Sequence record: MT150133.1
DNA from: Enterobacteria phage vB_EcoM_IME540
Length of the DNA: 64,000 nucleotides
Reading direction: 5' to 3' (one strand)
Shown here: one piece after another, positions 18,104 to 34,000 of the stretch
Layout: each line of letters starts with the position of its first letter
Numbering within the stretch: position 1 is the stretch's first letter
Translations under genes and position numbers: made by a program
Notes under the pieces: generated by a model
What the model saw: only the letters and a program-made list of their open reading frames with translations
What the model was told of the DNA's origin: nothing
Databases searched by the model: none

Positions 18104-18658
18104 TCAGTTCTTGTAGAACCGGAACGGGTTTATGTGGAAGGCTAACATAGCCTTAGGGATTTTACGAGACAAAAGACTCTTAAGTTTCCAACCACAGTAC
18201 ACGCGAAGGTAAAAGGTAATTCCACCTACTTTAAGATACGGAACCGAAGCAAAGACTCCCCATGCTTCATCATTCCACATCCATAACCAACCATGGTGAG
18301 CTTTATCAGGAGAACCAGATTCTACATCAGGATTACCGCGATAATGGAATTCTGAACTACAATCACGTCCTAGTTTATGATAAGCAAAGTTATAAGCTTT
18401 ATTTCGCCATAGCCAAGCTACTCTCTGGAGGTAAACACCACCAGGCATTTTCCTGATTTTAGCCCAACGTTTAATATGACCTTTGTCGCCATCAATTGGA
18501 TTATCGTATGTCATCATCCAATCAAAGCCATAAGGCAATTTACCGGTCTTTTTATTGTAGAAAGGAACTACAAAAGGCGCAAGGATAACGGCTAGAACCA
18601 TAGAGATAAAATCCAGCGGGACCAACAGAATCCAACTCAAATATTTTAAAAGTTTCAT
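18104..18658 (-). CDS. hypothetical membrane-anchored protein (184 aa), Trp-rich
   Basis: N-terminal hydrophobic segment; followed downstream by terminator 18069-18099. Confidence 0.5.
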   Translation of the reverse strand: MKLLKYLSWILLVPLDFISMVLAVILAPFVVPFYNKKTGKLPYGFDWMMTYDNPIDGDKGHIKRWAKIRKMPGGVYLQRVAWLWRNKAYNFAYHKLGRDCSSEFHYRGNPDVESGSPDKAHHGWLWMWNDEAWGVFASVPYLKVGGITFYLRVYCGWKLKSLLSRKIPKAMLAFHINPFRFYKN

Positions 18659-18691
18659 ATTATTTCCTAAGTTAGTTTACTACATATTTAT

Positions 18692-18722
18692 ACAAAAAAG
18701 GCCCAACCTTTCGGAAGGGCCT
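18692..18722 (-). terminator. intrinsic terminator (same hairpin as 18069-18099)
   Basis: Identical 22-nt hairpin followed by TTTTTT on minus strand; downstream of tRNA/small-RNA region. Confidence 0.6.
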
Positions 18723-18952
18723 TTAACCTAGGGTAACCTTGTCGGGGTTCCACCTGCTAGGCAAGTGTTCGGTGCGCCGTTTCAGCTGTGATAGTAAAGA
18801 GCCAGAACACAGTAAAACTGTGGGAGGAACTATACTCCAGGGAACATCAGTCCGACGACTTACCGGTAGCGACCCGGTTTCTTGTTTGGTGCGCCGGTGA
18901 ATGCTGGTAATCAGTCTTCATACGACGGCTTGACTATATAATAGTCTTCATT

Positions 18953-19027
18953 TGGTATCCCGCCCTGGGATCGAACCAGGACCGCAAACTTAGAAGGATC
19001 GTATGCTATCCATTACACCAGCGGGAC
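18953..19027 (-). tRNA. tRNA-Arg (anticodon UCU), CCA encoded
   Basis: Reverse complement GTCCCGC...GATCCTTCTAAGTTTG...CCTGGTTCGATCCCAGG GCGGGAT ACCA folds as cloverleaf: 7-bp acceptor, T-arm with TTCGATC loop, anticodon loop CTTCTAA; one T-T mismatch in anticodon stem. Confidence 0.7.
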
Positions 19028-19032
19028 GTAAT

Positions 19033-19698
19033 TCAAAATTTTATTTTACGGCCTTTATTCCAACCTTCAGGAATAATATCCGTTTTGTTAATACGTTTAG
19101 AAACTTTTTCTTCTAAAGAATGAATCCACATTTTTCCATATCCGGAATTATTTTCACCTTGTTGGTGTTTATTTCTGGCGTGAGATTCTTTCATTTTATT
19201 TTTGGTTTCATCTGAATGGGTCTTACCCAAGAAAGATTTAGTATTTGAAAATTTCTCTCTATACTTAGGATTATCCCAAAGTTGTTTAAACCTTTCCGAA
19301 CCCATTTTACGATATTTTTCTTTAAGGTCTGGGTCGTTCTCAAATCTGGTTTTAAAAGCGGCAACTCCTTTTAAGGAAGCTTCTTTCTTTTTATCTAAAT
19401 ATTCTTCAGTGTTTAAATGGTCCCAACCACCTTCACCACCTAATTTCAAATTATAAACATCAGGGCGCTTTAAAAACTCTTCAGTCACAATATTCTTTTC
19501 TGACTCAAACATAGAGGTTTTATCGTCAAAGAACTCTAATATTTCTTTAGAGAAATTTTCTATACCGTATTTGACCTGGGCCCTTTTTAAGAGTTTACCA
19601 GAACCAAAATATGCATCATTCAAATTTTCGGTTGAATGGGCGCCTATATAGATTTTATTATTAATTTTGTTTGTTATTTTATAAGTGTAATGGAACAT
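19033..19698 (-). CDS. GIY-YIG homing endonuclease-like protein (segB-like, within tRNA cluster)
   Basis: N-terminus YTYKITNKINNKIYIGAHST...YFGSG; sits between two tRNA genes as segB does in T4. Confidence 0.7.
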   Translation of the reverse strand: MFHYTYKITNKINNKIYIGAHSTENLNDAYFGSGKLLKRAQVKYGIENFSKEILEFFDDKTSMFESEKNIVTEEFLKRPDVYNLKLGGEGGWDHLNTEEYLDKKKEASLKGVAAFKTRFENDPDLKEKYRKMGSERFKQLWDNPKYREKFSNTKSFLGKTHSDETKNKMKESHARNKHQQGENNSGYGKMWIHSLEEKVSKRINKTDIIPEGWNKGRKIKF

Positions 19699-19739
19699 AA
19701 ATATCTCCTATTTCTAAGAGTATTTATGTTCTCAAAATA

Positions 19740-19810
19740 TGGCCCTGGGTGGAATCGAACCACCATCCAGCGATTATGAGTCGCTCGCTTGACCGTCCAG
19801 CTACAGGGCC
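19740..19810 (-). tRNA. tRNA with anticodon CAU (Ile2-type or Met); CCA not encoded
   Basis: Reverse complement GGCCCTG TA GCTGGACGGTCAAGC G AGCGA CTCATAA TCGCT GGATG GGTGG TTCGATT CCACC CAGGGCC A; perfect anticodon and T stems. Confidence 0.75.
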
Positions 19811-19815
19811 TTAAA

Positions 19816-20088
19816 TCAAACTACAAATCCAGCAGGAGCATTATCATCTTTAGCCATGTGCTGAATTGTATGATAAGTCATTTCTTCAGGAGCAACCAGA
19901 TAAGCCGCAGCGTTAACTAGTGGAATTATTTTTGGTTTAGCGAATGTGCTATCGGCAATTGCCATAAAGGGCTCGCCATCAGTCTCAACTTCGCCAAATT
20001 GACATTCATATGAAATAGAACAACGTTTGGTAGTTGTTGTCTTGGTTTCTGGGTCGTAAAAAGCTAATTTTAATACTAACATAAACAC
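19816..20088 (-). CDS. hypothetical small protein (90 aa)
   Basis: ORF track. Confidence 0.4.
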   Translation of the reverse strand: MFMLVLKLAFYDPETKTTTTKRCSISYECQFGEVETDGEPFMAIADSTFAKPKIIPLVNAAAYLVAPEEMTYHTIQHMAKDDNAPAGFVV

Positions 20089-20256
20089 CTCAAATAAAAT
20101 TAAGTAAAGTAAGTTTGATTAATAGACCTTGTCTATTATGAAAGGTTCTTTGAGGGAAGAACCTTTGGTAATAGAGGGTATTAATGATAGAGTAATAATA
20201 ACACATTACTCTTAAAGCATATTACTATTTTTAGGAATAGTCTGGTCAAATTTGAT

Positions 20257-31026: not shown

Positions 31027-34000
31027 ATGTCTGTACAAGCGCCTTATGTTACTAGTCTGAGAATTGATAAACTCTCGGCTAACCATGTGAGCATTCTTTG
31101 GGATGACGTAGGCGCCAACTTCTATTATTTTGTAGAACTGGCCCAAACGAAGGATGCGGGTGTAGAAATTCCCGACGATAGATTATTTTGGAGAAATTTA
31201 GGTTACACCCCTAACAACGAATGGTTTGAAGAGGCATTCATTTCTCCTAATTCGTTTTATAAAATGCGAGTTGCGGTGGCAGCCCAGGGGTTTGAGCAGT
31301 CTGAATGGGTTTATACTGAAGAATTTGAAACTTTCTCTACCAACGCATATACATTTGAGCATATGCGTGAATTCACTTTGTCTAATAAGTTTATTGAAGA
31401 AAAATTCACAAACAATAACCAGAATTATGTGAACTTTAATACTGACGCCATTATGGCTTCTTTGATGAGTGAAGATTTTAACTTTACCCCTGCATATTCG
31501 CATTTGTCATCTATATCGAATTATGTTTTAAAAGCCGATCGTTTCCATGAAATCCAAGGAAGCATCCAAGCTGTTTGTAAAGACCCTAAACGTTCTATTT
31601 TAATGGAACTTGGTGGTGTACTTTACCTTTTAGAAAGATTCCAAAGCACCGCTAAGGTTTCTAATGATAAAGGGCAGAACTGGCATTATATCCGTTTGTT
31701 TAATGACCGGGTAGGTAATCCTGTTTCACGTACGGTACATTACCAAACCGACACGACCACTTATGTTCTAGGTTATGACCAAATATTTTACGGGCGTAAA
31801 TCAAGTGATATTCGTTGGTCTGCTGATGATGTTAGATTTAGTTCCCAAGATGTAACATTTGCTAAAATCGGTAGTGATATTGACCTTCCATTTGAAATCG
31901 AGATATTTGGTTCTTATGCGAAACTTCCTTTGCCTATTTCCACTATTGCTGAAGCTATGTGTGCTTCGGACGATTTCATTTATGTTGCAGGTAGAGACAG
32001 GGTTTATAAAGCAAAAACATCTGAGGCCCCTATCGACACGGACCCTAGTTCTCCGACTTACGGGGAGAAGATATTTGAAAGCGGTTATTCAACCATCACA
32101 GGGAACCCTAAAGCTGTTTGTTATAAATTAGATTCGATTCAAGGAAATACCTTTGCTTTAATTACAGGTGAAGTTAAAGAAGAGAAAATGGACCCTACAG
32201 TCGAATCCAATGTTATTGATTCTGAATCTAAAGGTGTTTATTGGTTAGACACTTCAACCGATACATGGACCCGTGTATTTGGAAACACCGAAGAAGAACG
32301 TCGTCGTATAGAACACGGATATACTAGCATGTCTACCGACGGAGAGGAATTATTTTTCAGTTCAAGCAACTTTAGATATGAAGTAGAGGTTGATTCTGAA
32401 CTTCCTTTGGAATATCCTGAAATTGTTACCTCAGCCGTTAAATATGTTAAAGACGAACAATGGATTCATGATAAGCATTATTTGATGATGAGTTTTAGGT
32501 CCAACTCTAAATCAGATTTTAAAGAATTTAAACCAGGGCGTATGGCTTATTATGCCGAACCATTCTTTAGTTGGTCCCGTCGTGATGGAACCCGTTCGTG
32601 GATTACTACTAGCGACCATGCGATGGTTGTTTATAATGATGCTTTATATCAGAAAATTATCGACCTGAACAGTGGTTCTTCACCTGAACGTATTGTTCAT
32701 GAGATTTGGAATAAAGGTTTTTGTAAAGTCACATCTCCTAATATAGAGTTTAATGGCTTTAAGAAATATTCTTCAGGAATGATGATTCATAAATCGACAG
32801 GTGAATTGGTTGGATATTTTGAATTCGACTATCGTGTACGTGATGAAGTTCGCGTCATTTGGAAGCCTAAAGAAATTATGTTTACGGCCGAATTACAAAA
32901 CCAGGAACATGAAATCCCATGGAAACCTAAAGAGGAAGTTGGTGAGCAGGACCCAGACCTCCAGCCTTTACTGGTTAAAATGATTCCAGATAGTTATTTG
33001 CTTCAAGATTCTAACTTTGAAAAATTCTGCGAATACTATCTCCAATTTATTAGTGATGGTTCCGGTACACACTATAATAATTTGTTGAATCTTATTCGTA
33101 ACCAATACCCACGTGAAGAAGATTCATGGGAATATTTGTGGTCAGAAATCTATAAGCGTAATATCTATTTGTCGAAGGAAAAACGTGATGAAGTTGTTCG
33201 TTTTTTCCAGGCACGCCAAAGCGATTTTTGGTCTACTAAAGGTACCGAAGCTTCTTATAAGTTCCTGTTTAAATTGCTTTATAACGAAGATGTTGAAATT
33301 GATATCGAGTCCAAGAACTCTATTGAATACGATATCATCGTAGAATCTGATAATATCAGTGAAGATATTGTCGGCCAAACCATTTATACTCCTACAGGAC
33401 GTAGTAATGTTACTTATATTGAACGTAACTATAAACAAGGTAAACTGCAATGGCGTTTAACCATTCATAACCTTTTGGGTCGTTTTATAGTCGGCCAGGA
33501 AATTAAATCTGAACGTACTTCGTTCAAGGGTATGATTGTGCGTGGTGTACGTGGTAAAGAACTTTTAAGTAACAATATAGACTATATCAACCGTAACCGC
33601 TCTTATTACGTGATGACTATTAAATCTAATCTCCCTACCTCTCGTTATCGCAACGATGTTTTGAGATTTGTCCATCCGGTAGGTTTCGGCTTTGTAGGTA
33701 TAACTTTGCTTTCTATGTTTGTTAACGTTGGTTTAACGCTAAAACATACAGAAACTATTATTAATGTCCTTAAGAACTACAAATGGGACTCTGGTTTGCC
33801 ATCTGAATGGTATGATAGAGTTGCTGTAATAGGTTTTGATGGTAATATAGAACGAGACCCTCGTACAGGTGCTCCGATGTACAACGTCGGCCCTAAAGCA
33901 GGTGAACCGTTTGATATTCCTGCCGATTATGATGCAGAAAACGATTTCTCTGTATTCCAAGGTCAATTACCACACGAACGTATTAAAAAGCATAGTCCAT

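Follow-up and report, generated by a model that had tools for sequence, protein, structure and literature searches.

A T4-type tRNA and stable-RNA operon with rnaD, a shortened rnaD copy and no rnaC in the Dhakavirus-like coliphage vB_EcoM_IME540

What occupies the 230 nucleotides (nt) that separate a tRNA-Arg gene from a terminator in the genome of Enterobacteria phage vB_EcoM_IME540? The stretch in question (positions 18723-18952 of the 64,000-nt piece of record MT150133.1 analysed here, hereafter the window) had been described in an initial annotation as free of open reading frames (ORFs), as containing a repeated motif, and as possibly encoding two related structured RNAs of about 110-120 nt analogous to the stable RNAs C and D of phage T4. 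These T4 RNAs, the products of rnaC and rnaD, have been on record for some 50 years. Both accumulate late in infection, rnaD being seen in Northern blots as a discrete stable RNA of about 120 nt (PMC9697503), and neither has a known function (PMC3014915).

Comparison with phage genomes by blastn groups the window with the Dhakavirus-type Tevenvirinae. The closest relative is phage LHE83 (97.8% identity across 9 kb), and LQ5, AnYang, QL01 and KIT01 match at 94-98% identity. With positions 18660-19030 as the query, the T4 records carry the annotations rnaC, rnaD and tRNA-Arg under the match. The T4 operon reads, on one strand, seven tRNAs, segB, tRNA-Arg, rnaD (119 nt), a 6-nt spacer and rnaC (139 nt). 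In the window every feature of the locus lies on the minus strand, a point on which the initial annotation was silent, and the order is tRNA(CAU), segB, tRNA-Arg(UCU), a 66-nt element that we call mini-rnaD, rnaD, a junction without rnaC, a trailer and a terminator. As far as identity and anatomy are concerned, we are confident that the locus corresponds to the tRNA and stable-RNA operon of T4, here in a Dhakavirus-like coliphage and carried on the minus strand.

rnaD and a shortened tandem copy

The anatomy of the 230-nt stretch was worked out from an alignment with T4, IME341 and KIT01 and from sequence extracts of 20 related loci (relatives are cited by L number where they have to be told apart). 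Read on the minus strand, the stretch and the terminator comprise five parts, namely a mini-element, which a short spacer follows, an rnaD ortholog, a junction, a trailer and the terminator itself:

18887..18952, minus strand: mini-rnaD, 66 nt, unannotated (covariance model, gap-tolerant alignment, fold)
18883-18886, minus strand: AACA spacer after mini-rnaD
18771..18882, minus strand: ortholog of T4 rnaD (species 2 stable RNA), 112 nt (homology, covariance model, position)
18767..18774, minus strand: junction without rnaC, GCACC joined to GAACAC (alignment, sequence extracts)
18724..18770, minus strand: 3' trailer, 47 nt (nearly invariant from T4 to the window)
18693..18723, minus strand: intrinsic terminator of the operon, AAGGCCCUUCCGAAAGGUUGGGCCUU followed by a U run (fold)

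The rnaD ortholog has invariant blocks at both ends, the 3' one ending CGGCGCACC, and between them a hypervariable central hairpin, here of 'type c'. Its first 45 of 45 nt and 21 of its last 22 nt are identical to T4 rnaD in the blast alignment, and the central ~45 nt are unrelated. Within the tRNA operon it shares the strand of the other genes and sits between tRNA-Arg and the terminator, set off from tRNA-Arg by a 70-nt insertion (mini-rnaD plus spacer). We assembled 20 distinct rnaD sequences from T4, Dhakavirus records, and IMG/VR and metagenome contigs; a metagenome scan by 17-mer returned mostly chance matches and about eight true rnaD loci. Against a covariance model of the 20 homologs the window sequence, itself one of the 20, scores 110.8 bits. 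Rfam offered no family for the window region or for T4 rnaC and rnaD at either gathering or permissive thresholds, and an rnaD annotation is absent from all Dhakavirus records inspected.

RNAalifold applied to the 20 homologs yields four helices, P1-P4. P1 pairs ACCGG with CCGGU around the 7-nt loop GUCGCUA, P2 is an invariant closing helix (GUCGUCG/CGGCG(C)AC), and beyond P4 the central hairpin occurs in at least four unrelated sequence types, each of which is self-complementary. Compensatory changes accompany this fold: the pair 5/21 is AU in 16 homologs, GU in 2 and GC in 2, the pair 37/108 is UA in 10, AU in 7 and UU in 3, and further examples fall at 47-49/97-99. Across the alignment 98.2% of cells are paired and 24 cells carry a double change against 7.9 expected, a value that none of 500 shuffles reached. 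When the 3' partners are slid by 1-3 columns, at most one pair is changed on both sides, against five in the true register. The P1/P2 pairing is also present in the minimum free energy (MFE) fold of 17 of the 20 homologs.

The central arm (18795-18838, minus strand) deserves a separate remark. Phages with more than 95% identity elsewhere show a shuffled assortment of its types, and the flanking blocks are invariant; LHE83, for all its closeness, has a different type, and the type of the window recurs in L007, which carries a T4-like array of eleven tRNAs, and in metagenome contigs. On the opposite, plus strand, the terminator scan picked out positions 18862-18878, where the reverse complement of rnaD P1 is followed by a T-rich run. 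This terminator-like signal is probably incidental, and it would stop antisense transcription into the operon.

Directly upstream of rnaD, mini-rnaD is a 66-nt tandem rnaD copy in which P1, the AA linker and P2 are preserved and the variable arm is missing. It reads AAUGAA, a hairpin (GACUAU/AUAGUC), AA, a closing helix (GCCGUCG/CGGCGC) that encloses two short helices, and an ACCA tail; in the MFE fold the hairpin belongs to a 23-nt 5' part, and the two short inner helices stand where rnaD has its long arm. The alignment with T4 contains no such element. An rnaD covariance model built without the mini-element matches its entire length, retains P1 and P2, and has 24 nt in place of 76 central positions, at a score of 14.9 bits; E is 0.0016 for a search of 2.5 kb and ~0.04 for the full 64 kb. 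With filters off, no other non-self match of the model in the whole window scores as high, the next reaching 10.7 bits. Gap-tolerant alignment of mini-rnaD with rnaD gives 39.8 against 25.7 +/- 4.0 for dinucleotide-type shuffles, none of 1000 reaching the real score, and strict local alignment recovers a 9-mer alone (p ~0.03). The same strict procedure found nothing when the mini-element was aligned with rnaC, tRNA-Arg or the trailer.

This 9-mer is the repeated motif that had first drawn attention to the stretch. GGTGCGCCG occurs exactly twice in the window, where 0.08 occurrences are expected and none of 100 shuffles contained two or more. Its copies lie at 18771-18779 and 18888-18896; the initial annotation had both copies and the first coordinate right, and set the second one position too far (18889-18897), giving a spacing of 118 nt in place of 117 nt. 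On the coding strand the motif reads as the CGGCGCACC of the rnaD 3' end and forms the 3' strand of the closing helix P2 in rnaD as well as in the mini-copy, and the 117-nt spacing arises from the length of rnaD together with the AACA spacer. In most relatives the upstream copy is GGCGCAAC, and GGCGCACC is found, besides the window, only in phage 04086. Most relatives have AACA as the tail of the mini-element, so that exact repetition of the 9-mer is almost confined to the window.

Two motif copies 117 nt apart, at a place where the homologous T4 region is annotated with rnaC and rnaD, could be taken to mark counterparts of both T4 RNAs, C and D, each ~110-120 nt long. The stretch does hold two related elements that are homologous to the T4 stable-RNA region, and to this extent the earlier proposal stands, but they do not correspond to C and D, nor are both of the expected size: the downstream element, at 112 nt, is rnaD, and the upstream one is the 66-nt rnaD paralog. 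The latter has a local score of 12 against rnaC (p = 0.88), as compared with a gap-tolerant score against rnaD that beats 1000 of 1000 shuffles, and rnaC itself is deleted here. A pairing of RNA C with RNA D is refuted at the sequence level, and we consider it extremely unlikely.

A protein-coding role of the stretch, through a small ORF on either strand, has even less to commend it. Mechanical translation does produce plus-strand frames of 53 amino acids (aa; 18739-18900) and 40 aa, so that the statement that the stretch contains no ORF was essentially, if not literally, right. Against a coding role, no open frame is conserved among the relatives and AnYang has none of at least 35 aa on either strand; a 146-nt indel and unrelated arm sequences moreover set the relatives apart, and the substitution pattern is that of paired RNA helices. 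The probability that we attach to a small protein gene here is close to nil.

The rnaC-less junction, the trailer and flanking signals

At the junction between rnaD and the trailer, T4, KIT01, LHE83 and 04086 have ~146 extra nt, made up of a spacer and the 139-nt rnaC (species 1 RNA). Sequence resembling rnaC, its T arm CCGGGTTCGAATCCCGG included, is absent from the whole 64-kb window apart from one 23-nt match; this match, at 32134-32156, falls inside a 1031-aa ORF and was dismissed as a chance hit. Of the five other relatives without rnaC, four have the same junction CACCGAACACTTGCC as the window, and LHE83 keeps rnaC.

Among near-identical T4-like phages rnaC thus behaves as a presence/absence cassette. 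It is present in L001, L003, L006-L010, L014, L109 and L110, where the junction runs from GCACC through GAATTA and the 139 nt to CAAACACTTGCC, and absent in L002, L005, L011, L013, L015 and L108. In the window and in four of the five other rnaC-less loci, GCACC is followed by GAACACTTGCC; L013 reads GCACA. The presence of rnaC in some phages and its absence in others implies that it is dispensable in nature. The rnaC T arm also holds the core motif GGTTCRANTCC recognised by the homing endonuclease SegB (motif from PMC2330249), and SegB breaks might for this reason promote rnaC loss; the presence of segB and the absence of rnaC show no strict correlation.

The trailer contains two hairpins. In the first (CACUUGC-CUA-GCAGGUG, 18767..18751) the loop alone varies across 18 variants (CUA, CUU, CUUG, CUUA), and the second, a small RCC/GGY hairpin, alternates between GCC/GGC and ACC/GGU among the variants and is deleted in L105. 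The trailer, which comes after rnaD here and after rnaC in T4, is more conserved than the rnaD arm, and its occurrence after other sequence in L004 and L105 marks it as a separate module. Folding of 18693-18770 gives -29.5 kcal/mol (z = -2.4), with the terminator stem running into UUUUUU. The terminator is conserved and has compensatory alleles (GGCCC/GGGCC and GCCCC/GGGGC); a simple terminator scan missed it because of an internal loop.

Promoter signals were less forthcoming. A sigma-70 promoter scan gave nothing convincing on the minus strand, either within 18693-19030 or ahead of the CAU tRNA, and the part of the region that precedes the operon lacks the T4 late-promoter motif TATAAATA. 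One exact copy of this motif does occur right after the terminator (18685-18692, minus strand), ~26 nt upstream of the ATG of a DUF7338 gene (18104-18658), the next gene, which it serves; the motif is enriched in the window, with 20 matches against 7.6 expected. In the intergenic region upstream of a 90-aa ORF (19816-20088), at 20120-20168, two strong inverted repeats (TAATAGAC with GTCTATTA, and AAAGGTTCTT with AAGAACCTTT) were noticed by eye, and beyond them, on the minus strand, a TTGACC box. Repeats and box may together form the promoter of the operon or a processing region.

segB and the two tRNAs

Upstream of the stable-RNA region the operon consists of three genes:

19740..19810, minus strand: tRNA with anticodon CAU, 71 nt, without encoded CCA (ARAGORN; Rfam tRNA, 62.6 bits)
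19033..19698, minus strand: segB ortholog, encoding a free-standing GIY-YIG homing endonuclease of 221 aa (ORF between the tRNAs)
18953..19027, minus strand: tRNA-Arg(UCU), 75 nt, CCA encoded (ARAGORN; Rfam, 48.8 bits)

A GIY-YIG gene between the tRNAs had been likened to the segB of T4 in the initial annotation, and it is a true ortholog: the encoded protein shares 76% amino acid identity with T4 SegB over 221 of 221 aa (E 2e-124). Residues 3-71 match Pfam GIY-YIG (PF01541) with 24.3 bits against a cut-off of 22.6, and a weak NUMOD3 match (19.4 bits) stays below its 20.4-bit cut-off. AnYang, LHE83 and LQ5 have segB in common with the window, and in KIT01 and 04086 the two tRNAs are adjacent with no gene between them. 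This presence and absence among relatives is the pattern expected for a homing endonuclease gene. IME341 carries at the same site (L002, 2835-3494) an unrelated 219-aa 'endonuclease' with no similarity to the SegB of the window, so that the site appears to be used by different mobile nuclease genes.

T4 SegB acts on a 27-bp site centred on the tRNA T-loop motif GGTTCRANTCC, and preferential inheritance of the tRNA region results (PMC2330249). The gene is linked with tRNAs in many phages and can amplify tRNA segments, a means of escaping tRNA-cleaving defences (PMC13096335). In the window, by analogy, segB would be a mobile gene whose product cleaves T-loop DNA of tRNA genes, and it would be the driver of mosaicism here.

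ARAGORN finds exactly two tRNAs in the 64 kb and Rfam at its gathering threshold returns the same pair and nothing more. The two programs agree with the earlier count of two tRNAs (Arg-UCU and CAU) against eight in T4, and a check for additional tRNAs yielded none. The tRNA-Arg(UCU) is identical to its T4 counterpart, all alignment columns being invariant. The CAU tRNA is probably a lysidine-type tRNA-Ile reading AUA. Its top matches in E. coli are annotated tRNA-Ile (79.7% over the full length), and the acceptor stem GGCCCUG/CAGGGCC contains, as read from the sequence, the pairs C4-G69 and C5-G68. Both pairs belong, as does an ileX-like anticodon arm, to the TilS determinants of tRNA-Ile2-like bodies. 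CAU tRNAs of T4-like phages bear Ile signatures and are regarded as lysidine-modified tRNA-Ile (PMC1524935).

In sequence type this CAU tRNA is that of L005 and of PP01-like Tequatroviruses, where it adjoins segB, and not the T4 tRNA-Ile type. Its lineage differs from T4 tRNA-Ile and equally from the CAU tRNA of the Dhakaviruses KIT01 and IME341; its 3' flank (ATATTT) is the T4 segB flank, and its T arm (19751-19761, minus strand) is the sole GGTTCRANTCC match in the 64-kb window. Lineage, segB-type flank and SegB motif together suggest that a block of segB plus tRNA arrived via homing with co-conversion. AGA and AUA, rare codons in E. coli, make up 5.3 and 10.2 per 1000 codons in the long ORFs of the window. 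These figures suit the customary view that the two retained tRNAs, which would supplement the decoding of AGA and AUA, serve the codons that E. coli uses least. Five relatives (L002, L003, L008, L011 and L015) likewise have Arg-UCU and CAU alone. The tRNA reduction is typical of the lineage, and nothing notable sets the window apart in this respect.

A reduced cluster invites the thought that the 230-nt stretch consists of pseudo-tRNAs, degenerate leftovers of a larger T4-like array. Both elements end in ACC(A) after a helix, as an acceptor end does, rnaD P1 (ACCGG-GUCGCUA-CCGGU) is similar to a T arm, the T arm of the CAU tRNA is a weak match to the rnaD model (5.3 bits, E 0.66), and T4 rnaC has a canonical T arm and a weak tRNA-Sec match in Rfam (E 0.7). 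Opposed to this, the T-like hairpin of rnaD lies 5' of the closing helix and not in a cloverleaf, and mini-rnaD does not resemble tRNA-Arg. When 18600-20200 was scanned with Rfam at permissive settings, 18693-18952 gave no further tRNA-like match, and neither ARAGORN nor Rfam, even at E up to 10, shows a tRNA or pseudo-tRNA in the stretch. Degenerate tRNAs are a very unlikely origin, and rnaD with its tandem copy remains our reading of these elements.

Possible expression and function, and comparison with T4

What rnaD and the mini-element do can be proposed only tentatively and much less securely than what the locus is. By the model that we favour, a single precursor would begin ahead of the CAU tRNA and end at the 18693 terminator, and the host would release the tRNAs and rnaD from it with RNase P and RNase E and, after these, 3' exonucleases. 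Processing of the T4 species 1 and 2 RNAs by RNase P and RNase E belongs to the classical literature. Judging from the T4 literature and from the anatomy described above, rnaD would accumulate as a stable RNA of ~112 nt, its stability owed to a 3' end that is locked in P2 and leaves just ACC protruding, in the manner of a tRNA acceptor end. A host or phage factor may recognise the invariant 5' block of 45 nt, with the loop of P1 (GUCGCUA) and the P2/J region, as a sequence-specific binding surface, and the central arm may serve as a freely exchangeable spacer. When a T4-like phage adapted to a semi-permissive host, a recurrent single nucleotide polymorphism appeared in rnaD in every line (PMC12685909), which hints at a role in host interaction. 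For mini-rnaD, the most economical origin would be that rnaD was duplicated in tandem and one copy then lost its variable arm; the element might be freed as an RNA of ~63-66 nt or stay attached as a leader of rnaD.

Several points weigh against this picture. The single-sequence fold of the window rnaD is no better than that of shuffles (z = -0.5), its P3 terminal pair (37/108) is U.U, and its MFE structure has P2 in a shifted register, with a P2 pair probability of ~0.2. The covariance-model E-value of mini-rnaD is modest, and the tool itself describes it as rough; the helices of mini-rnaD lack covariation support because there is almost no sequence variation to provide it, and the ACCA tail is that of the window, most relatives having AACA. 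With rnaC and the AU-rich spacer that follow rnaD in T4 deleted, rnaD 3'-end formation may differ here, and the 3' end of the RNA may extend as far as the terminator. The ends and the stability of the RNA in this phage are deduced from its sequence, and a binding-platform function of rnaD is speculation.

These reservations bear most heavily on mini-rnaD, which could be a functionless scar, either a decaying partial duplicate of rnaD or a remnant of recombination or homing repair, that acts as a mere spacer and leaves rnaD as the sole RNA gene. Such an origin would suit a locus that is a mosaic shaped by homing endonucleases (PMC2330249). The element is confined, at >=97% identity, to 26 closely related phage records, none of which has a feature annotated there (the four annotated records inspected, IME341, KIT01, AnYang and LHE83, are Dhakavirus, as is 04086), it shows neither covariation nor a conserved CCA-like tail, and T4 and other lineages manage without it. 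On the other side, it has been kept at >=97% identity in the same phages in which the adjacent rnaD arm and rnaC were swapped or lost, its fold (MFE -16.4 kcal/mol) is stabler than that of shuffles (z = -3.0), and the variation among relatives, limited to three positions (A45G, a G insertion and C64A), falls in each case on nucleotides predicted to be unpaired and avoids the helices. We regard the scar as a serious possibility, although not the one towards which we lean.

A bolder proposal would make mini-rnaD a separate functional small RNA of Dhakavirus-type phages, whose minimal rnaD fold (P1, P2 and an acceptor-like ACCA) defines the core of the species 2 RNA. RNAs of the rnaD family would then be mimics of tRNA ends, or decoys, directed at host tRNA-processing enzymes or tRNA-targeting defence enzymes. 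If this were true, the swappable central arm and the rnaC cassette would reflect an arms race. We rate the proposal as improbable.

Irrespective of function, the locus and its relatives yield a covariation-supported fold for rnaD and separate its invariant parts, the 45-nt 5' block and the 3' CGGCGCACC, from the central arm, which is freely replaced. A naturally minimal version of rnaD points to the core on which functional tests could concentrate, and annotation stands to gain as well, rnaD and the mini-element being missing from every Dhakavirus record inspected. The locus in itself is unsurprising; the comparative picture is useful for finding the function of the orphan RNAs rnaC and rnaD.

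Set beside known systems, the reduced tRNA set, segB and rnaD are of kinds already described, and the tandem mini-rnaD and the rnaC-less layout are a small novelty. T4-like genomes carry from 0 to 24 tRNAs each (PMC1524935), and the set found here is minimal like the reduced sets described by Nolan et al. (2006), with the CAU tRNA (lysidine-type Ile) kept and Arg-UCU in addition. SegB agrees with its T4 counterpart in length (221 aa), in combining GIY-YIG with a sub-threshold NUMOD3, and in its site between the CAU tRNA and tRNA-Arg, but the upstream CAU tRNA is of another lineage and bears the SegB core motif GGTTCGATTCC. The rnaD of the window is like that of T4 in operon position downstream of tRNA-Arg, in strand, in the P1-P4 fold and in length (112 nt as against 115-119 nt in T4); it differs in its central hairpin, which is of the unrelated 'type c' shared with the Tequatrovirus-like L007, and in the U.U at the end of P3. 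In T4 rnaD comes directly after tRNA-Arg and is followed by the AU-rich spacer and rnaC, whereas in the window it comes after its mini-copy and is followed directly by the trailer. rnaC belongs to the same operon in T4, LHE83, 04086 and KIT01; in the window the junction of GCACC with GAACAC takes its place, and the mini-element, a paralog of rnaD, is unrelated to rnaC.

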